DNA of 64,000 nt from Planctomycetota bacterium. Lineage in GTDB: Bacteria > Planctomycetota > JAJSAM01 > JAJVHW01. The DNA lies in assembly GCA_965248445.1 (NCBI GenBank), contig CBDFJG010000001.1, positions 96,001-160,000 of the forward strand. Direction: 5' to 3'. Position numbers and translations under genes: made by a program. Positions 39,798 through 51,248 of the stretch are shown here, piece by piece (the first letter of the stretch is position 1; each line of letters begins with the position of its first letter). The notes below the pieces were generated by a model, which was not told the DNA's origin, ran no database searches, and saw nothing but the letters and a program-made list of their open reading frames with translations.

Positions 39798-41258
39798 TCA
39801 CTCCGTCTTCGACTGCCCCATCGAGTCGCGCGATAGCCGCTGGAGGAACGACCGCTCCGTGCCTTTCGTCGCACCGAACCCGATGGTGTTGATCGCAACC
39901 TTGCGCGTGCGGTTGACGCTGCGCACCGCGTCGCCGACGCGGTTCTTCACGGTGTGGTCGCCGCAACTGGGAGCACCGTCGGAGAGCAGGTACACGGTGT
40001 CGACATCATCCTGTCCGATCGCGAGCAGCAGCCCCTCGAGCAGGTTGCCGCGTTCACCGGGGCTCACGCGCTTCAGGAAGGACGCGATCGCCTTGCGCGA
40101 CTTCTTGCCGATCTCCTGCGGCCGCTCGAACGCGGCCTTCGCCTGCTCCTGGAAGACGACGACGTTCACACGCGTGCCGTCCGCCAGCGCGTCGACGGCC
40201 CGTTCGAGCTCTTCGCGCGCAGACTCCCAGCGGGTCTTCCCGCCCGCCCCGGCAAGCTCATCCTTCATGCTGCCGCTGGCGTCCACCACGAAGACGACCT
40301 GCCCCGAGAGGATCTCCATGCCGTGATACACGGCGCGCGTTCCGCCATCTTCCGAGGGGACGTCACCGCCGGCACGCTTCTTCGGAGTCTCCCACGCCTC
40401 GCGATTCGCGTCCCACCACGCCTTCCAGATGTCCGCATCGCGGCCGAGTTGCTTGCCGGTGATCTCCACGAGTGCGCGGTGTGCAGCCGCGGCGACACGA
40501 AGGCGCGCGTCCCCCACCAGGACGACCAGCGCGTCGAGAGACGGCCCGTCCATCAGCCAGTACGCGTTCTCGACGAGCTGGGCGCGCGTGCGCCAACCCT
40601 CGTCCGCAATCGACGCGGCGAGGTCCTCCGCCGCCCGCGGTTTGTCCACGAAGCGCAGCTCCATGCGCGCGACGGCGCGGACGCCCTCGTCGGCATCGCC
40701 CAGCGCCTTGTGCACGACGGCGACCGCGGCGTCGCCGCGGATCCGCCCGGCGGCCTCGACGGCTGCGGCACGTACCGACTCGTCACGGTCCTCGGCCGCC
40801 TCGGCGCTGATGGCGACGGCGTCCTCGTTGCCGCGGAACCCCCACAGCGCATCGAGGGCAGCGATACGCACGCGCGGTGACTTGTCCTTACGGGCCAGGC
40901 GAGACAGCGTCTCGAGAGCCGCAGGCGACTTGGTCTTGCCGAGAGCCGCCGCGACGTTCGCGCGCAAGAGTTCGTCGCGTCCCTTCGCGGCGGCTGCCAG
41001 GACGCCGACGGCCGCCTCGTCGCTGATCTTGTCACACGCGTTCACGGTGTGATCGCGCACATACGGGTTGTCGTCTGCCAGGAGCTTGCAGAGAATCTTC
41101 GCCGCCGCAGGCGTGCCGTCCTTGGCGAGGGCTCGCGCGGCATCCGAGCGCTTGAACGAATCCGCGTCCTCGGCCAGCTTGCGGAGGTCCGCATCCACGG
41201 CGAAGGCGGTACCCGCAACGGCGACGAGGGCGAGCAGGGTGAGACGGAAGCTACGCAC
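39798..41258 (-). CDS. HEAT-repeat + VWA domain protein
   Basis: Signal peptide, HEAT repeats, MIDAS FVVDASGSM and LLSDG.P. Confidence 0.88.
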   Translation of the reverse strand: MRSFRLTLLALVAVAGTAFAVDADLRKLAEDADSFKRSDAARALAKDGTPAAAKILCKLLADDNPYVRDHTVNACDKISDEAAVGVLAAAAKGRDELLRANVAAALGKTKSPAALETLSRLARKDKSPRVRIAALDALWGFRGNEDAVAISAEAAEDRDESVRAAAVEAAGRIRGDAAVAVVHKALGDADEGVRAVARMELRFVDKPRAAEDLAASIADEGWRTRAQLVENAYWLMDGPSLDALVVLVGDARLRVAAAAHRALVEITGKQLGRDADIWKAWWDANREAWETPKKRAGGDVPSEDGGTRAVYHGMEILSGQVVFVVDASGSMKDELAGAGGKTRWESAREELERAVDALADGTRVNVVVFQEQAKAAFERPQEIGKKSRKAIASFLKRVSPGERGNLLEGLLLAIGQDDVDTVYLLSDGAPSCGDHTVKNRVGDAVRSVNRTRKVAINTIGFGATKGTERSFLQRLSRDSMGQSKTE

Positions 41259-42087
41259 CGATCCGCTCCACGATTCCCGTGATCAACCGGAGCAGATCCG
41301 CGCTCCGAGCGCCTGCCACTTCGACAACTTCCTCTTCGGCCGTCTTCCCCGCCGCGACTTCGCCCGCGGGGTTCACGACCAGTGAGAGCACGAGAGTCTG
41401 CAGTCCCATCTGCGCCGCGGCCAAGACCTCCGGCACCGTGGACATGCCGGTCACGTCGACTCCGAGTGCCCGGAGGCGTCGCACCTCGGCGGCCGTCTCG
41501 AAGCTCGGGCCGTGCTGCGCCGCGTAGACGCCCTCTTCTAGCGGCATGCCGAGGTCCGCCGCCGCGTCCGACGCGAGCATCCCGAGCGCCGGGTCGTAGG
41601 CGCGACCGGCCGTCACGGGGAAGCGCGGTCCCCACCGCTCGTCGTGCACTCCCCGCAGCGGATCGAACCCGAGCAAGTTGATGTGATCCGTGACGCGCAC
41701 GATCGTGCCGGCGGGCATCCCCTCGCGCACGCCTCCGCACGAGTTGGTCAGGATCAGGCGGCGCACGCCGAGCAACCCGACCGCCCGCACGAGGCGGATC
41801 ACCTCGGCGGGTTCGTGCCCCTCGTACGCGTGGAGGCGGCCTTCCAGCAAGAGCACGGGAACCCCCGAGAGCAGCCCGTGATGCATGCGCCCGCGGTGTC
41901 CCGGTGCCGTCGCCTCGGCGATCCCAGGCACGTCTCCGAACGAGAGCGACGTCGCGTCGCCGAGTTTCGGCAGGGGGATGCCCGATCCGGTCTGAATCGC
42001 GACCACGGCGGTCCCGTAGCCGGCCTCACGCAGATGGGCAGCGGTCCCTGAGACCAGGTCGTACTCGGCGCGGTGGTCGGGCTTCAC
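41251..42087 (-). CDS. punA: Purine nucleoside phosphorylase (trimeric, PunA/XapA type)
   Basis: GSG, PGH.G, GRLHAYEG, LTNSCGG, DHIN, GPSFET.AE and GMSTVPE motifs. Confidence 0.9.
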   Translation of the reverse strand: MKPDHRAEYDLVSGTAAHLREAGYGTAVVAIQTGSGIPLPKLGDATSLSFGDVPGIAEATAPGHRGRMHHGLLSGVPVLLLEGRLHAYEGHEPAEVIRLVRAVGLLGVRRLILTNSCGGVREGMPAGTIVRVTDHINLLGFDPLRGVHDERWGPRFPVTAGRAYDPALGMLASDAAADLGMPLEEGVYAAQHGPSFETAAEVRRLRALGVDVTGMSTVPEVLAAAQMGLQTLVLSLVVNPAGEVAAGKTAEEEVVEVAGARSADLLRLITGIVERIGA

Positions 42088-42116
42088 GTCGAGAGTGTAG
42101 GGTCCCGCACGTCGCG

Positions 42117-43289
42117 TTACGGGATCGGGAAGCTCGTCGTCCCGAACTTGTTGCCGTCGAACGTGTTCTGGTCCTCGGCAACCTGGCTGAACAGGTCCGT
42201 TGATGCGCTGCCGCTCACCTTGTTCTTCGTGAACGTGTTGCCGATCGTCTGGACTCGGATGCCCAGGTCCGTTGAGCCCTTCACGACGTTCCTGTCGTAG
42301 AGGCTCCCTCCGGTCGACTCGACTCCGACCTGTACCCGGATGCCCGTGTCGGCCCCGAAGACCTTGTTCCGCGTTATCTCGGACTCGCCGACCCTGGCGC
42401 TGATTCCGATGGTTCCACCGCGAATCGTGTTCCTGGTGATGACGATCGGCTGCGCGATCGGGGTCGTCGAGATCCCGGCGAAGCCAACGTCTTGGACCTT
42501 GTTCCGCGACACCTCGATGCCCCGCGCGGTGAGGCTTATCCCGACTCCCGAAGGCGCCGAGACCTTGTTCCTCGTGATGACGGATCCGGTCATGTCGGTA
42601 CCGACCTCCGTCGAGATCCCGGTGTTGGCGCCGACCACGGTGTTTCGCTCGCACCGCGCATTGACGCCAGCCAGCACCAGCGCGCCCCCGACCGACGCCG
42701 TGAACTTGCTCTTGCGGATCACGACGTCGTTGATGGCGACGCCGCCGCTCATGTTGACGCCTACATTCACCGTGTCGACCGCCGTGCATCGGTCGATCAG
42801 GACTCCGTCCACCGAGGCCGGGAAGAACCCGTTCGAGACGTTGCTTGCGACGCACTTCATGAAGCGATTGCCGGTCCCGAAGGTATCTCGGAATCCGTTC
42901 GCCATGCCGTCGGCCGTGCACTTCTTGAACGTGCACGACACGCTGTTGCTCGTGGTCACGCCGTCGGAGCCGGTGCTGATCAGGCTCAGCCCCTGCACCG
43001 TGGTGTTCGTGCAACCGGTCACGGAGACCACGGAGATCGCCGCGCCTCCGTCCAGAACAGGCCGGCCCTTGCCGATCACCTTCACATCGGTCAGCCCGTC
43101 CAGGATGAGCCGCTCACCATAGGTCCCCTTCTTGATGACCAGCTTGTCGCCGTCCTCGAGCTGTGCAACGCCATCGGCGAGTGGGGTGCCATCGCCCGGC
43201 ACCACGGTCACGGTCTTGGCATAGGCCGTAGTCGCCAGCAACGCCACGGCCGCGACGAGCAGCAGGTTTCTGAGTTGGGTCGTCTGCAT
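42117..43289 (-). CDS. Secreted right-handed beta-helix repeat protein
   Basis: Signal peptide, GD....GTY.E and many I.RN.V repeats. Confidence 0.85.
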   Translation of the reverse strand: MQTTQLRNLLLVAAVALLATTAYAKTVTVVPGDGTPLADGVAQLEDGDKLVIKKGTYGERLILDGLTDVKVIGKGRPVLDGGAAISVVSVTGCTNTTVQGLSLISTGSDGVTTSNSVSCTFKKCTADGMANGFRDTFGTGNRFMKCVASNVSNGFFPASVDGVLIDRCTAVDTVNVGVNMSGGVAINDVVIRKSKFTASVGGALVLAGVNARCERNTVVGANTGISTEVGTDMTGSVITRNKVSAPSGVGISLTARGIEVSRNKVQDVGFAGISTTPIAQPIVITRNTIRGGTIGISARVGESEITRNKVFGADTGIRVQVGVESTGGSLYDRNVVKGSTDLGIRVQTIGNTFTKNKVSGSASTDLFSQVAEDQNTFDGNKFGTTSFPIP

Positions 43290-44578: not shown

Positions 44579-45319
44579 TCAGCCGACGGGAGCGGAGTGG
44601 CGCAGCGTGTAGCCGTGCTCGCCCCAGAAGCGCAGCCATGTCGACGTGATCAGAGCAGAGCGCCCGAACTTGAGGTCCGTGTCGGCTGGCCCGCCGGGCG
44701 GATGGCCGGGCAGCGCGCCCGCGATGATCGCCTCGACGATTCCCCGCCAGTCCGTCTTCGCCAGCTCGGGGTAGGCCACGCGCAAGTGCTCGCCGACCGC
44801 CTTGTCGAGCTCTTCGGCGAGTTGCGCTCCGTCTTCGGGAGTGATGTTCTTCTGCATGCTGCGCGTGAGTTCCAGTCCGAGCCACGGGATCTCCGGCACC
44901 GGAAACGGTGCGATCGGCCAGTCCATGTCGAGCTGGTGCAGCACCTGGTGCTTCGTCAGTTCCCACACCGGGCGCCCGTGCATTTCCTCGACCATGGCGT
45001 CGGGCTCGAGCGGCCACGCCTCCGTGGAGTCCGCCATGCGCTTCTTGAACCACTTGGTGGCCTTCGGGTCCATGCCGATGCGCGGCGGATCGAGATCCGA
45101 ACCCGGATAGCAGTGACACGCCGCGATCTGCCGGTCCAGCAAATCGAGCTTGTTCTTCAGGTGCCGCCGCCGCTTGCGCTTCGTGGACGACATCAGGATG
45201 GCGCCCACGCCGATCGCCTTCAGCTCGGCCAGAACCTCCTCACGCCCCGCCACGAAGCCCGCGTGATCGTCCACGTGCTCTGCCTTGAGCTTCCGCATCA
45301 GCGTCCATGTCTCGGGCAT
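44579..45319 (-). CDS. Hypothetical protein
   Basis: From MPETW; genome-typical codon usage; no recognised motif. Confidence 0.65.
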   Translation of the reverse strand: MPETWTLMRKLKAEHVDDHAGFVAGREEVLAELKAIGVGAILMSSTKRKRRRHLKNKLDLLDRQIAACHCYPGSDLDPPRIGMDPKATKWFKKRMADSTEAWPLEPDAMVEEMHGRPVWELTKHQVLHQLDMDWPIAPFPVPEIPWLGLELTRSMQKNITPEDGAQLAEELDKAVGEHLRVAYPELAKTDWRGIVEAIIAGALPGHPPGGPADTDLKFGRSALITSTWLRFWGEHGYTLRHSAPVG

Positions 45320-45371
45320 GGCGGCGGACGGTAGCGATCCGGCGACCGACCGCGAAGAACACGCGGCGCGT

Positions 45372-46053
45372 CTAGGTGGCCGAGTGCCGGAGCGCGGCCT
45401 GCACGAACCCGGCCACGACGGGATGCGGCTGCTCGGGCGAGAACTGGGGCAGGTAGAGCGTCCCCACGAAGAACGGGTGGTCTGTTCGCTCGACGGCCCG
45501 TGCCTCGCCGGTGCCGTCGGTCGCGACCACGCGGAGCCCCGACCCGTCGACCTCGGCCTGCAGCGAAGGATCGAGCCCGTACCTGCACGTGGTGCGCTCC
45601 TGCAAGGCCGCGCGATCGTCGTGCAGGGCGCGTAGCCGGCTCCCCGGGAGCAGCGCGACTTCGATGACGGTGTCGCTGAGATCGCAGGAGAGCGGGGTGA
45701 CGACGGCGCGGGCGCCGGTCTCGCCGTACTCCGCGTGCGCGGCCCCATGGATGCCGAGCACGGTGCGGGCATGTTCCACCAGAACATGCTGGAACCCGCC
45801 TCAAGGTCGCGAGCAACGGGATCTGCTCCTCACGGCAGCGGCGAATCAGCGCGAGCACGGCGTCCAAGTCGGCGTACGGACTGCCGGGCCCGAGCAGCAC
45901 CCCGTCGGGCGTCGAAGAGACGGAGAGCGCATTTGTGTGCACCCAGCGCAGATCCACATCAACCGATGCCGCACGCAGCGCGGCGAACGTCGTCGTGTGA
46001 TACCGCGAATCCGGTCCCAGATCGATCACGACGTCGATGCGGGCGGCGGTCAT
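45372..46053 (-). CDS. CTP synthase C-terminal (GATase)-related protein, probable selenoprotein; one extra base at 45803/45804
   Basis: N-half DGVLLGPGSPY..IPLLAT and C-half GGFQH.LVEHAR.VLGI..A.HAE..C.YGL..HPFFVGTL. TGA (45803-45801) sits at the nucleophile position of T-C-GGFQH; SECIS-like hairpin follows. Confidence 0.8.
45765..45799 (-). promoter_or_regulatory. Putative bacterial SECIS element
   Basis: GCGGG-TTCCA-GCATGTTC-TGGTG-GAACATGC-CCGC. The 8-bp upper stem starts 11 nt after the TGA and has a G-containing apical loop. Confidence 0.7.
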
Positions 46054-46931
46054 GCCAGGGGTTTACCGAGTGCGGCCGGCGGGCGCGCCTTTCCAACGAC
46101 GCCGGACAGGACGACGAGCGTGATCACGTAGGGCAGCATGCGCGGGATCTCGTCCGGGATCTTCGCCACCACCTGGAGCTGGTTGGCGAGAGCGGTCAGC
46201 AGCGCGAACCCGATCGCGGCGCACGCGGCGTAGGCCGGACGCCACTTGCCGATCACGACGCACGCCAGCGCCAGGTACCCGCGCCCCCCCGCCATGTGCT
46301 TGCTGAACGAGCCGACGTCGAACGCCAGGTACACGCCTCCGAGCCCGGTCAGGAGGCCCGCGGCGACGACCGCCCACGTGCGCACCGACGCGGCGGACAC
46401 GCCGAGGCTCTCGGCGCAGGCAGGGTTCTCGCCGACGGCGCGCAGTCGTAAGCCGGGCTTGGTGCGGCGGAGTGCGGCCATCACCAAGGGGATCGCGAGC
46501 AGTGACAGCCACGTCAGCGGGGAGAGGCCCGCGATCGCCGCTCCCGACAGCGCCTCCATCTGCGCGTCCGGGAACGGCTCGCTGGCGCCCTTGGCGCTCC
46601 AGATCGAGACGAGCGCCGCGATCGTCGCCGCGTCCACCAGGAGGTTCAGCGCGACACCGGCCACGACGTGGTCCGCCCGCGTGCGCGTGCAGATGACCGC
46701 GTGCAACAGAGCGACCGCGCCCGCCGCCGCCACGCCGACGCCCGCGCCAACCAAGACACTCCCCGTGAGCAGCGCACCCGCCGCGCCGCCGAACGCCCCC
46801 GCCAAGAGGTAGCTCTCGAGGCCGAGGTTGATCACGCCGGACCGCTCGGACAACACGCCACCGAGCGTCGCGAACAGCAGCGGCGTCGCCTCACGGAGCG
46901 TGGCGCCGGCGATGTCGAGGATGCCGCTCAC
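46050..46931 (-). CDS. Nucleoside ABC transporter permease (NupC/NupQ-like)
   Basis: SERSGVINLGLE, GLRLRAVGENP, GRGYLALA and P.ALG.P motifs. Confidence 0.9.
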   Translation of the reverse strand: MSGILDIAGATLREATPLLFATLGGVLSERSGVINLGLESYLLAGAFGGAAGALLTGSVLVGAGVGVAAAGAVALLHAVICTRTRADHVVAGVALNLLVDAATIAALVSIWSAKGASEPFPDAQMEALSGAAIAGLSPLTWLSLLAIPLVMAALRRTKPGLRLRAVGENPACAESLGVSAASVRTWAVVAAGLLTGLGGVYLAFDVGSFSKHMAGGRGYLALACVVIGKWRPAYAACAAIGFALLTALANQLQVVAKIPDEIPRMLPYVITLVVLSGVVGKARPPAALGKPLA

Positions 46932-47941
46932 GAGTCGCCGCCGAGCCGGGCGCCGGCCAGTGCCGCGGCAACGAGGATGACGACGCCCTGCACGATACTG
47001 GCCGCCTCGCGAGGCGCGACGCCGAGTGCGTCCATCGCGAACGCGCCGCTGCGTAGCGCGCCGAGCGCCAATGCCGCGAGAACGACGCCGACTCCGGTCG
47101 ATCGGCCGAGCAGCGCGACCGCGATGGCGGTGAACCCGAATCCCGGCGAGAACCCGTCCACGTAACGGCCGTGCTGGTCGAGCACCTGCTGTGCGCCCGC
47201 GAGCCCGGCCAACGCACCCGCGGCTGTGAGCGACCAGAAGATGCCGCGCGCGACCGGCAGTCCCAGAACCTGCGATGCACGCGGTGCGTGTCCGATGGCC
47301 CGCGCGGTCAGCCCGGTCCGTGTGCGCGAGAGCCACACGTCGAACGCTAACGCCACGAGCACCGCGAATACGAGCGCTGGATAAACGTGCGACAGTGTCG
47401 CGGTCGCGGGCTCGGTCTGCAGGATGGGGCTGTCGGCCCTGGCCCACTGTTGCGAGATGACGAGCCCGGCCAGAGGGACCGCAACGAGGTTCATGAGGAT
47501 CGTCGACAGAACCTCGTGCACACCGAGGTGCGCGCGCAGGACGCCCGGGATCGCGCCCCACACGCCACCGACGAGCAGTCCGACGAGCACGGCCAGCGGG
47601 ATCGCCACCGCGGACGGTACGACTGCCGCGACCAAGCCTGCCGCGAGACCGCCGAGAATCAGCTGGCCCTCCGCGCCGATGTTGAAGAGGCCGAGCCGCA
47701 GAGGCAGCGCGACGGCCAACCCGGCGAACACGAGCGGCACCGTCTCGACCAGTGTGCCGTGGATCGACGGCCCGCTCCCGAACGCGCCGTGCACGACGGC
47801 AGCGAGAGTCCGGAATGGGTCGTACCCGAGCACGGCAACGACGAGGCTCGATGCCAGGATCGCAATGCCGAGCACCTCGAGCGCGGAGAGTACGCGGTCA
47901 AGCGGTCCCGCGCGATGGCCGGTCGCGACGGCGTCGCTCAC
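46928..47941 (-). CDS. Nucleoside ABC transporter permease (NupB/NupP-like)
   Basis: GLFNIGAEGQ, HEVLSTILMN and GF.AIAVALLG motifs. Confidence 0.9.
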   Translation of the reverse strand: MSDAVATGHRAGPLDRVLSALEVLGIAILASSLVVAVLGYDPFRTLAAVVHGAFGSGPSIHGTLVETVPLVFAGLAVALPLRLGLFNIGAEGQLILGGLAAGLVAAVVPSAVAIPLAVLVGLLVGGVWGAIPGVLRAHLGVHEVLSTILMNLVAVPLAGLVISQQWARADSPILQTEPATATLSHVYPALVFAVLVALAFDVWLSRTRTGLTARAIGHAPRASQVLGLPVARGIFWSLTAAGALAGLAGAQQVLDQHGRYVDGFSPGFGFTAIAVALLGRSTGVGVVLAALALGALRSGAFAMDALGVAPREAASIVQGVVILVAAALAGARLGGDS

Positions 47942-49449
47942 CGGTGCGCTCCGGCCATCAGCAGTCCGATCTCGTCCTCCGTCGTCTCCTTCGGACGGAC
48001 CTCGCCTGCGATGCGGCCCCCGAACATGACGAGGATGCGGTCGCAGGTGTCGAGCAGTTCGCCGAGGTCGGTGCTGACGACGACGACGGCGCCGCCTTCG
48101 TCGCACACGCTGCGCAAGCGGCGATGCACGGCCTCGGTCGCGCGGAAGTCCAGTCCGCGAACGGGTTCAGCTGCGAGGAGCACGCGCGGATTGCGCCGCA
48201 GCTCGCGCGCCATGAGCACCTTCTGCTGATTTCCCCCCGAGAGTGCGTTACAGAGCGCATCGGGGTCCGGCGGCCGCACATCGTGCGTCGTGACGACCTC
48301 GCGCCCCTCGTCGATCACCTTCTCCCGCACGATCCACCCGCCGCGGAAGAAGCCGCGCGCAGCCGCCGTGCCGAGCACGAGGTTCTCGGCGACGGTCATG
48401 TCGCCGACAAGACCGTCGTGCACGCGGTCCTCGGGAACGTAGCCGAGACCCGCGAGGCGGCGTCGTCGCACCGGAAGGCCGAGCAGCGACGATCCGGCGA
48501 GCGTCGCCGTCCCCCCCGCCACGGGACGGATGCCCGCAAGCGCTTCGAGCAGCGCAACTTGACCGCTGCCCGCCACACCGGCGATTCCGACCATCTCGCC
48601 TGCGCGGACAACGAACGACGCGTCCGCCACCGCCGACCGGGCACCCCGTCCGTGAACCGTCAGCCCGTCCACGAACAGAAGAGTCCTCGCCGCGGGGTCG
48701 CGCACCCTCTCCGTCCGCGTATCCAGATCGAGGTCCTCGCCGATCATCAGTCGCGCCAGCTCGCGTTCGTCGCTCGCAGCCGTGTTGCGTTCGCCGGTCA
48801 CGGCGCCGTGCCGCAACACGCTCGCGCGCGAGCAGACCGCGAACACCTCGCGCAATCGATGGGTCACGAGGACGACCCCACAGCCTTCGCTCGCCAGCCG
48901 CTCCATCAGCGTGAACAGCTCCTTCACCCCCTGCGGCGGAAGCAGCCCGGTCGGCTCATCGAGCAGCAGGAACCGCGCGCCGCGCACGAGCACCTTCAGC
49001 AGCTCCACGCGCTGCTGCGCGGACACCCCCAGGTCGCCGACGCGCGCCTCGGGATCGACGTCGAGGCCGAAGCGTTTCCCGCAATCGCGTACCTCGTCCG
49101 CGGCAGCGTCGAGATCGAGCAGCGGTCCCGTACCCGGCTCGCGGCCGAGCACGACGTTCTCCGCCACGGTCAGCTCCGGGATGAGCAGGAAGTGCTGATG
49201 CACCATGCCGACGCCCCGCGCTGCGGCGTCCCGCGGGCCGCGCAGCCGCACGGCGGAACCGTCCACCTGCACGGAACCGGCGTCCGGCTGCAGGAACCCG
49301 GACACCACGCGCAGGAGCGTCGTCTTGCCGGCGCCGTTCTCACCGATCAGCGCGACGATCTCCCCCGGCGCGACGTGGAAATCGACGTCGGACAGCACGG
49401 TTTTCGCACCGAAGCGCTTCGTGAGACCCGCGACTCCGAGACCGCTCAC
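47938..49449 (-). CDS. Nucleoside/sugar ABC transporter ATP-binding protein (double NBD)
   Basis: GENGAGKT, GMVHQHF, YVPEDR and LSGGNQQK motifs. Confidence 0.93.
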   Translation of the reverse strand: MSGLGVAGLTKRFGAKTVLSDVDFHVAPGEIVALIGENGAGKTTLLRVVSGFLQPDAGSVQVDGSAVRLRGPRDAAARGVGMVHQHFLLIPELTVAENVVLGREPGTGPLLDLDAAADEVRDCGKRFGLDVDPEARVGDLGVSAQQRVELLKVLVRGARFLLLDEPTGLLPPQGVKELFTLMERLASEGCGVVLVTHRLREVFAVCSRASVLRHGAVTGERNTAASDERELARLMIGEDLDLDTRTERVRDPAARTLLFVDGLTVHGRGARSAVADASFVVRAGEMVGIAGVAGSGQVALLEALAGIRPVAGGTATLAGSSLLGLPVRRRRLAGLGYVPEDRVHDGLVGDMTVAENLVLGTAAARGFFRGGWIVREKVIDEGREVVTTHDVRPPDPDALCNALSGGNQQKVLMARELRRNPRVLLAAEPVRGLDFRATEAVHRRLRSVCDEGGAVVVVSTDLGELLDTCDRILVMFGGRIAGEVRPKETTEDEIGLLMAGAHR

Positions 49450-50492
49450 TCGGTCTCCGGCGGCATGGCCTCGACCGCGAGTTCGCCCGACGAGATGAGG
49501 CGCTCGAGAACGGCGAGGCGCGCCTCGTCCTCGGCGGACACGAGTGGCCGGTTGTGCTCGTCGAGCGCCCAGCCGACGCCGCCTTCGGCGACGCCGAACG
49601 ACTGGAACCCGCCGGTGAGCACGCCGTCCGCGAGACGCTTGCACGTGTCGAACACGGCGACGTCCACGCGCTTGACCATCGACGTGAGCACGGTGCCCGG
49701 TCGCTCGTGGTTCTGATTCGCGTCCACGCCGATCGCGTAGATACCCGCTTCCTTGGCTCCGGCGATCACTCCGTTCCCGGTCTGGCCGGCCGCCTGGTAC
49801 ACGACGTCGGCGCCCTGCTCGACGAGAACCCGCGTCAGTTGTTTGCCCTTCACGGGATCGGCGAAGCTGCCTGCGACGACCGAGATCACACGCACGTCGC
49901 CGGACGCCTCTCCGAGGTGTTTACTCTCGGCGATGAAGCCCTGCCGGTACCCGTGCTCGAACTTCATGAGCAGCGGAACGTCGAGACCCTTCACGATCCC
50001 CGCGATCCCCGTCTTCGTCTTCCGTGCCGCGAGCGCGCCGACCAGGTAGCTCCCCTCGTGCTCCCGGAAGACGAGTGAGGACACGTTCGGCATGTCGAGC
50101 GCGTAGTCGATGATCGCGAACTGCGTGTCCGGATGGTGCGCGGCGACCTTCTCGAGAGCCGAGGCCATCAGGAACCCGACCCCGATGACCAGGTCGAAAC
50201 CCTCGGAGGCGTAGAAATCGAGGTAGCGCTCGTCCTCGCTCATGGCGGCCGGTTCGCCGTATGTCGCGACGATCCCGAGTTCGTCGCGGGCGCGCATCAG
50301 CCCCTCGTAGGCCATGTCGTTGAACGAGCGGTCGCCGCGCCCACCGACCGAGAGCACGACGGCGACCCGGTGCTTGCCCTCCTCGGGAGCCGCCGTCTCC
50401 CCGGGACCGCGCCACACGGCGCCCGCCGCGAGCAACGCCGTGGCCGCGAGGACCACGACCCGCACCGTCCTCGCACGCCTGTTCCTCTCCAT
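49446..50492 (-). CDS. BMP/PnrA-family nucleoside-binding protein
   Basis: GDRSFN, FREHEGSYLVG, AG.TGNG, IGVDANQ and SMVKRVD motifs. Confidence 0.93.
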   Translation of the reverse strand: MERNRRARTVRVVVLAATALLAAGAVWRGPGETAAPEEGKHRVAVVLSVGGRGDRSFNDMAYEGLMRARDELGIVATYGEPAAMSEDERYLDFYASEGFDLVIGVGFLMASALEKVAAHHPDTQFAIIDYALDMPNVSSLVFREHEGSYLVGALAARKTKTGIAGIVKGLDVPLLMKFEHGYRQGFIAESKHLGEASGDVRVISVVAGSFADPVKGKQLTRVLVEQGADVVYQAAGQTGNGVIAGAKEAGIYAIGVDANQNHERPGTVLTSMVKRVDVAVFDTCKRLADGVLTGGFQSFGVAEGGVGWALDEHNRPLVSAEDEARLAVLERLISSGELAVEAMPPETE

Positions 50493-50597
50493 GTCGCGGA
50501 GAGGCTACCGAGAGACCCGCCGCGCCGCGCCTCGCGATCTCGGCGGCTCCGGACGCCCTCTCGGGCGAAACTGAGTGGAGACGGGAGTGGAGGGGGC

Positions 50598-51248
50598 ATG
50601 CCGGGTCACGACCTCGCGGCGTTCATCGATCACTCGGTGCTCGCGCCGAACACGCGCTCCGCGGACATCTCGGCGGCCTGCGCCGCGGCGCTCCAGTTCA
50701 ACTTGCGCTCGATCGTCGTGACCAGCGGGTTCGTCGGGCAGGCGAAGCGTCTGCTGACGGACTCGCAGATCGGCGTGGTGAGCGTCGTCGCCTTCCCCCA
50801 CGGCACGAGCGGACCGGACACGAAGGTGTACGAGGCCACGCGCGCGGTCGAACTCGGCGCGGACGAGATCGACTACGTCATCTCGATCGGTGCCGCACTC
50901 GACGACGACCTGCGCTTTCTGACCGAAGAGGCGCGCGCCATCTGCCGCGCAGTTCCCGGCCACGGTGTGAAGGCGATCCTCGAGACGGGGTACTTCACCG
51001 ACGAGCGGATGTTTGCGGTCGCGGGCGCCGTGCTTGACGGCGGTGTGGCGGTCGTCAAGACGTCGACGGGGTACGGCCCGCGTGGAGCAACCGAAGACGA
51101 CGTGCGCATCCTCGCGCGCGCCGCCGCCAACCGCGGCTTCGTCAAGGCGTCCGGCGGCATCAGCGACCGCGCCCGCGCCATGTCCATGCTCAACGCGGGT
51201 GCCTCGCTGATCGGCACCAGCCACGGACCAGCGATCTGCACGCCGTGA
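50598..51248 (+). CDS. deoC: Deoxyribose-phosphate aldolase
   Basis: IDHSVL, FPHG, GADEID.V, VKAILET, VKTSTG, VKASGG and IGTS motifs. Confidence 0.93.
   Translation: MPGHDLAAFIDHSVLAPNTRSADISAACAAALQFNLRSIVVTSGFVGQAKRLLTDSQIGVVSVVAFPHGTSGPDTKVYEATRAVELGADEIDYVISIGAALDDDLRFLTEEARAICRAVPGHGVKAILETGYFTDERMFAVAGAVLDGGVAVVKTSTGYGPRGATEDDVRILARAAANRGFVKASGGISDRARAMSMLNAGASLIGTSHGPAICTP

Follow-up and report, generated by a model that had tools for sequence, protein, structure and literature searches.

The minus strand of the window, that is, the whole stretch of 64,000 nucleotides of Planctomycetota DNA that was analysed, very probably carries a frame-broken gene of a divergent, mostly selenocysteine-type subclade of the protein family NF004836, whose intact form is a predicted selenoprotein with a SECIS-like hairpin. 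A TGA codon stands at the column of the nucleophile and is followed by the hairpin, relatives carry TGA at the same place in frame, and the genome has the selenocysteine (Sec) machinery; in the assembled DNA, one extra T directly before the TGA breaks the frame. Sec insertion itself and the chemistry of the product are what we infer from these observations.

Neither the family nor its Sec form is new to the catalogues. A selenoprotein described as 'glutamine amidotransferase (COG0504, PyrG)' was predicted by deep-Sep in Desulfosediminicola, with TGA-bearing and Cys-bearing homologs (PMC12013277), and a 2026 review lists the family as a predicted selenoprotein with the motif GxUxG (PMC13188914). 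The remark in the original prediction that annotation pipelines know a selenoprotein form was correct (NF004836; PMC12013277, PMC13188914). In the parts of these two papers that deal with the family we found predictions only, and no experiment on Sec insertion or function. New here is a frame-broken member in a divergent, Sec-rich subclade. Its value is mainly for annotation, where the locus turns up as a chimera of 251 aa or a fragment of 135 aa.

The broken gene and its family

The gene starts with an ATG at 46053, which shares the sequence ATGA with the stop of the upstream permease gene. Around the break, the minus strand from 45813 to 45786 reads CTC GCG ACC T TGA GGC GGG TTC CAG CAT. The features of the locus are as follows.

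45805..46053, minus strand: N-terminal coding piece, 83 codons, MTAARIDV...IPLLAT
45804, minus strand: extra T (T to TT), which shifts the TGA and everything downstream out of the start-codon frame
45801..45803, minus strand: TGA at the nucleophile column, Sec84 of the read-through protein
45372..45800, minus strand: C-terminal coding piece, 142 codons, GGFQHVLVEHAR...FFVGTLYLPQF...RHSAT, then TAG at 45374-45372
45298..46053, minus strand: open reading frame of the DNA as assembled, 251 codons, 83 native residues followed by 168 out-of-frame, Arg-rich ones

When the T is skipped, a protein of 226 residues with Sec84 is read from the ATG at 46053 to the stop at 45372. The coordinates, codons, Sec84 and length of 226 aa given in the original prediction all match the minus-strand reading and both translated pieces, and the extra T that it placed before the TGA is indeed present. 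The gene callers' version of the C-terminal tail covers only 45372-45779 (the 135-aa protein P0126). In a bacterial selenoprotein gene the UGA lies in frame with the start, as it does in the relatives G005, G140 and L090 described below; in the window copy it does not, owing to the T at 45804. Since the TGA is out of frame as assembled, this copy cannot make a selenoprotein unless the T is an error.

Looking at the two pieces separately, the NF004836 profile matched the N-terminal one over profile positions 2-89 (48.1 bits) and the C-terminal one over positions 90-227 of 228 (142 bits). No other family scored as high, and the match ran collinearly along the whole profile; PyrG models reached only 54 and 51.5 bits. 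The gene is a member of NF004836. The glutamine amidotransferase model PF00117 gave a borderline match in the N-terminal piece only (22.7 bits for a cut-off of 22.8). With 226 codons and no synthetase domain of CTP synthase, the gene is of the stand-alone type; the true pyrG of the source genome lies elsewhere (C4:311610-312323, inside a 661-aa open frame). The summed score of the window pieces, about 190 bits, is below the curated equivalog cut-off of 260 bits, and so is that of the intact orthologue of G005 (205.5 bits). Eight other members scored from 283 to 338 bits, including G296 (282.6) and the TGA-bearing G140 (304.6). The subclade of the window gene is below the NCBIfam cut-off and is therefore missed by automated naming.

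With the intact G005 orthologue as query, 3701 proteins were found at E ≤ 1e-5 among 8000 candidates scored, and the best 120 were aligned. The column under the TGA was Cys in 120/120 of these full-length homologs (best 120 of 3701), which places the TGA exactly at the catalytic Cys, as had been predicted. The His and Glu of the Cys-His-Glu triad of class I amidotransferases (PF00117) are missing from the window protein, which has L-P-Q there. Its replacement (LYLPQ) had also been pointed out, and it proved to be a trait of the whole family rather than a peculiarity of the window copy, because the triad positions were V/Q/L-P-Q/E, never His-x-Glu, in 120/120 homologs (again the best 120 of 3701). 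The nucleophile motif, G-T-[C/U]-G-G-F-Q-H in the family, reads A-T-[TGA]-G-G-F-Q-H in the window. Its first position is Ala in the window, Gly (G87) in 120/120 homologs and Ser in the related proteins P0125 and P0142; small residues at Gly87 thus seem to be tolerated in the clade of the window gene. A further difference is found at the Y157 column, which holds His in the window and Tyr in 120/120 homologs. Residues T88, U/C89, G90, G91, Q93, E98, H111, E113, C136 and C169 were invariant in an alignment of 13 sequences.

Selenocysteine-type relatives, hairpin and machinery

The family was present in 4 of the 401 sampled Planctomycetota genomes, the source genome included. G005, from the same taxonomic family and 59% identical to the C-terminal piece, reads GGC ACC TGA GGC in frame, G140 reads GGG ACG TGA GGC, also in frame, and G296 has TGC at the nucleophile column. 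A scan of the genome contigs with the G005 protein matched only G005 itself. Among the 80 best metagenome loci, 79 had Cys and one (L090) an in-frame TGA, GGC ACC TGA GGG, a 79:1 ratio that is biased because one of the two search patterns demanded Cys.

Protein calls revealed many more forms of this kind. When the C-terminal piece was used as query, 27 of the best 120 matches were at most 155 aa long, and 24 of these 27 (the window's own included) were proteins of 131-148 aa that start with [MV](LV)EHAR, 6-8 residues past the nucleophile column. This is the product to be expected where a gene caller restarts after a stop at that column. The three remaining short matches were two that begin further downstream and one N-truncated Cys form. 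Conversely, the 87-aa protein P0125 ends ...PTLST exactly before the nucleophile column. At least 23 related public clusters are likewise cut at the Sec codon (P0127-P0173, 23 clusters, together with P0125), with 'CTP synthase (UTP-ammonia lyase)' as the name given to the C-terminal fragments. The pairing of Cys and TGA that the original prediction proposed to look for was therefore found at this column, with TGA seen as DNA in G005, G140 and L090 and 23 split protein forms beside them.

The split forms also share a residue: the His99 of E-H-A-R was present in 24/24 of them and in 1 of the 91 long forms (Y 65, F 23, L 1, I 1, H 1), the latter being those of the 93 long matches that matched the motif search, 2 having remained unmatched. 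In a quick maximum-likelihood tree built on the C-terminal regions, whose rows exclude G005 (lost in trimming), one clade of 26 rows (SH-aLRT 94) united 24 TGA or split forms with 2 Cys rows. The window paired with P0127 in this clade (support 96), and G140 and L090 were placed elsewhere, among Cys forms. The window gene thus lies in a divergent, mostly Sec-type subclade below the NF004836 cut-off.

The hairpin that follows the TGA occupies the following positions.

45765..45799, minus strand: SECIS-like element, upper stem 45789-45781 / 45777-45769, GGU apical loop 45780-45778, lower stem 45799-45796 / 45768-45765

Within it, GCAUGUUC (45789-45782) pairs with GAACAUGC (45776-45769), and the stem begins 11 nt past the TGA. 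The 8-bp stem and the 11-nt spacing of the original prediction hold. Its separate 5-bp lower stem GCGGG/CCCGC does not, since the C with which the upper stem ends is counted in both stems, and the element is made of 8 + 4 bp or 7 + 5 bp, not 8 + 5.

To compare sequences we numbered the nucleotides from the U of UGA, so that window nt 15-23 pair with nt 27-35, and counted the pairs from 16-34 to 23-27. In this fixed register 8/8 pairs were formed in the window, G005 and L090, and 5/8 in G140, compared with 2-6 of 8 in the 79 Cys forms, none of which reached 7. Overall, 29/32 cells were paired in the four TGA forms (90.6%), and 28-50% when the partner was slid. Two pairs showed compensatory changes on both sides (19-31, G-C to A-U; 20-30, U-A to C-G); shuffles matched the observed covariation values in 19/500 and 62/500 trials, which with four sequences only amounts to modest support. 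The hairpin asked of the TGA-bearing homologs is thus kept among them, with compensatory changes.

Whole-region folding energy was dropped as evidence for a SECIS and replaced by this fixed-register count: the energy of the 66-nt stretch did not stand out from that of shuffles (z = 0.01 for the window, -0.27 for G005), and by z-score the TGA forms ranked 6, 10, 13 and 43 of 83 and were not the best folders. Hairpins of 7-9 bp were also borne by 9 of the 79 Cys forms, in other registers. Four of these nine (the metagenome loci L072, L113, L121 and L128) have a perfect 9-bp hairpin at nt 10-30 after the Cys codon, made of TTCCAGCAC or TTCCAGCAT, a 3-nt loop and GTGCTGGAG, which lies 5 nt upstream of the SECIS register and may either be left over from an earlier SECIS or result from the codons for Q-H-x-V-L-E. 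An Rfam scan of 45600-45950 gave chance-level matches only (17-25 bits for gathering scores of 40-59), and comparison of the window hairpin with the selD SECIS of the same genome revealed no obvious common sequence.

The source genome (5.4 Mb, 4 contigs, 92% completeness) contains all the Sec genes whose presence had been made a check on the prediction: selA (502 bits), selB (336 bits), selD (386 bits; L013, C3:1080793-1081719, minus strand) and a tRNA-SeC with anticodon tca. The selD gene has an in-frame TGA of its own, in GGGUACK.

Origin of the extra T

The simplest history of the site is ACC TGA GGC with its T doubled; an alternative history from a TGC or TGT ancestor requires two events. 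We looked for signs of decay at the 46 columns with a conservation of 95% or more: the window departs from 8 of them, and so does the intact G005 gene, which gives no signal either way.

We surveyed frame breaks in the source genome. By tblastn, 255 of 394 G005 ORFs (~550 kb) matched, 154 of them as good orthologs (≥ 40% identity, 100 bits). Ten rows, corresponding to 9 raw sites, had adjacent pieces in different frames, and sorting by eye left 5 convincing breaks, 3 ambiguous ones and 1 gene boundary or antisense shadow. The five convincing breaks comprised two 8-nt tandem duplications, one C6 homopolymer, one GAGAGA context and one charged linker. In the reverse survey, 152 source-genome ORFs against G005 DNA gave 3 raw sites, 1 of them convincing. 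Frame-broken orthologs hence number about 5/154 in the source genome and 1/147 in G005, a difference that is not significant. Broken frames are not rare in the source genome, at roughly 3% of surveyed orthologs.

Some details of these breaks can be given. The two 8-nt tandem duplications, at C2 near 487,666 and C3 near 1,544,809, are located between short direct repeats; one doubles GGACGGCG in the gene of a sigma-54-type AAA+ activator, the other GGCGGTGG in a further conserved gene. They could be slippage mutations or repeat-consensus errors. The other three convincing breaks relative to G005 orthologues (C3 near 540,992, C4 near 407,830 and C4 near 258,580) lie in a C6 run, in the activation-loop region of a Ser/Thr kinase (the GAGAGA context) and in a charged linker. 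G005's own break (L158 near 4488, C18) is in a calcium-binding-repeat-like protein (NGNGN.../LEDRNGNGL).

We give an even chance, or slightly better, to the T being a real and recent insertion, which would make the gene a fresh pseudogene in an organism that still uses selenocysteine otherwise. The other frame-broken accessory genes, with slippage-type 8-nt duplications among them, argue for such an event, and so does the dispensability of the family, found in so few of the sampled genomes of the phylum. Against it, the gene has no second lesion and no excess of change at conserved columns, so that any inactivation must be very recent, and the type of assembly leaves room for errors.

An assembly or sequencing error, the organism itself having an intact ACC TGA GGC gene and making the selenoprotein, is a serious contender that in our estimate falls somewhat short of an even chance. 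It is consistent with the state of the gene, which has no other lesion: the SECIS is intact, 142 codons are open and the conserved columns are as in the intact G005 gene. It is also consistent with the four contigs of the assembly, a contiguity that appears typical of long-read assemblies, with the break in the C6 homopolymer and with the higher number of broken orthologs than in G005, a contrast that, as said, is not significant. On the other hand, a T doubled to TT is no long homopolymer, two of the five other breaks, being 8-nt tandem duplications, resemble the outcome of replication slippage more than a consensus error, and all five are in accessory-type genes. One particular source of error, basecalling at a methylated motif, was considered because the intact site CCTGAGG fits CCTNAGG. 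Depletion of this motif and enrichment of CCTTNAGG would be expected, and neither was seen (CCTNAGG, 195 observed for 176 Markov-expected; T-inserted forms, 80 for 82.5); this candidate was rejected, and the counts weigh against an error.

That something other than a real insertion or an error is behind the extra T, programmed frameshifting included, is very improbable. We give still less credence to the TGA being no Sec codon and having arisen from a Cys codon by plain nonsense mutation, in a gene already dead when the T arrived. A single substitution would turn TGC or TGT into TGA, and Cys forms do dominate the metagenome loci, with the bias noted above in the search patterns; but 24 of the 26 rows of the window's clade are TGA or split forms, the register-specific hairpin is in place, His99 sets the split forms apart from the Cys forms and the genome has Sec machinery. 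Least credible of all is a programmed +1 frameshift, in which a slip at ACC-U-UGA would precede Sec insertion and the extra T would be functional: the extra base does lie exactly at the recoding site of an otherwise undamaged gene, but this reading is disfavoured because the 0 frame (ACC UUG AGG) has no stop or obvious pause signal, an upstream Shine-Dalgarno-like stimulator is absent and the extra base is missing from 3/3 TGA relatives seen as DNA (G005, G140 and L090); codon-anticodon rules also predict that the P-site tRNA would re-pair poorly in the +1 frame, and a +1 site of the prfB type needs a stop or hungry codon in the 0 frame at a slippery site, a stimulator upstream of it and conservation in relatives, which the window does not offer.

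Gene neighbourhood, putative enzyme and comparison with known systems

The frame-broken gene is the last one behind an ABC uptake system of the Bmp/PnrA type, arranged as follows.

46050..50492, minus strand: apparent upstream operon with a Bmp/PnrA-like binding protein, a double ABC ATPase and two BPD_transp_2 permeases
49446-50492, minus strand: Bmp/PnrA-like binding protein
47938-49644, minus strand: double ABC ATPase
46928-48106 and 46050 to ~47000, minus strand: BPD_transp_2 permeases

A protein with a PNP_UDP_1 phosphorylase domain is encoded at 41251-43014 on the minus strand (587-aa ORF, domain at residues 338-582), and a DeoC-family aldolase at 50133-51248 on the opposite, plus strand. 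The 246-aa ORF directly downstream of the broken gene (44579-45319, minus strand) had no Pfam match. From the annotated domains, the local context suggests nucleoside uptake and salvage, a reading based on the translational coupling to the Bmp/PnrA ABC transporter and on the nearby nucleoside phosphorylase and DeoC.

The Bmp/PnrA neighbourhood is absent at G005 and G140, whose neighbours differ. We also extracted 229 flanking ORFs around 79 metagenome family loci and scanned the 121 same-strand ones, among which there was neither a recurring partner nor a Bmp/PnrA neighbourhood; they included adenosine deaminase (twice), GNAT (three times), an amidase, an asparaginase with a permease and, at the TGA locus L090, MFS transporters. 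For these reasons the link to a nucleoside transporter is only local, and a conserved neighbourhood was discarded as a clue to function.

The intact form, as represented by the relatives, would work as follows. At the nucleophile of G/A/S-T-U-G-G-F-Q-H, selenocysteine would be inserted in response to the UGA, and the hairpin, which begins 11-12 nt past the UGA and is capped by a triloop starting with G, would recruit SelB with Sec-tRNA(Sec). The resulting protein, about 226-238 aa long, would have a class I amidotransferase fold and a selenol nucleophile, lack the usual His and Glu and retain two further invariant Cys, one His and one Glu. In the assembly, the extra T before the UGA breaks the frame and fuses the 83 native residues to out-of-frame sequence. 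Because of the invariant residues in the 13-sequence alignment, we infer an enzyme with a selenol or thiol nucleophile. As for its chemistry, our guess, to which we would give a little under an even chance, is that it hydrolyses or transfers amides through an acyl-selenoester, with the general base relocated; a redox role via the extra cysteines is a second guess, possible but more doubtful.

A more far-reaching combination of these elements seems unlikely to us: that the LVEHAR/LYLPQ subclade is a distinct, almost wholly Sec-dependent lineage, split by gene callers, with a non-glutaminase chemistry built on the selenol and the two invariant Cys and with a link to nucleoside salvage here, the T being an assembly error. 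A selenol nucleophile in an amidotransferase fold without His and Glu would be an unusual setting for a selenoenzyme, but the family has already been flagged in print as a prediction. The window copy is broken and therefore adds no insight into function.

Among known systems, two can be set beside the window gene. NF004836 itself has the same stand-alone size of about 230 aa, the same motif x-T-[C/U]-G-G-F-Q-H, the same missing triad His and Glu, the Sec/Cys pairing and a hairpin after the UGA. Unlike its ordinary members, which score 283-338 bits, the window gene reaches about 190 bits in sum and falls in the divergent subclade (LVEHAR, LYLPQ), has Ala for the first motif Gly and is frame-broken. 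The second is the glutaminase domain of the CTP synthase PyrG (e.g. PDB 3nva, 1s1m), which shares the nucleophile elbow G-x-C-x-G-x-Q and the ARNV segment. When the PDB was searched with the family profile, all 25 matches were CTP synthases and none was a structure of the stand-alone family; the match to 3nva (E = 1e-44, positions 3-232 to residues 292-533) covered the whole domain. The QAHPE of 3nva is aligned to LFVPQ in the family and to LYLPQ in the window, the triad His and Glu both being replaced. In contrast to PyrG, the family of the window gene has no synthetase domain and possesses two additional invariant Cys (C136 and C169, G005 numbering), and the nucleophile, which is Cys in PyrG, is a predicted Sec in the window.
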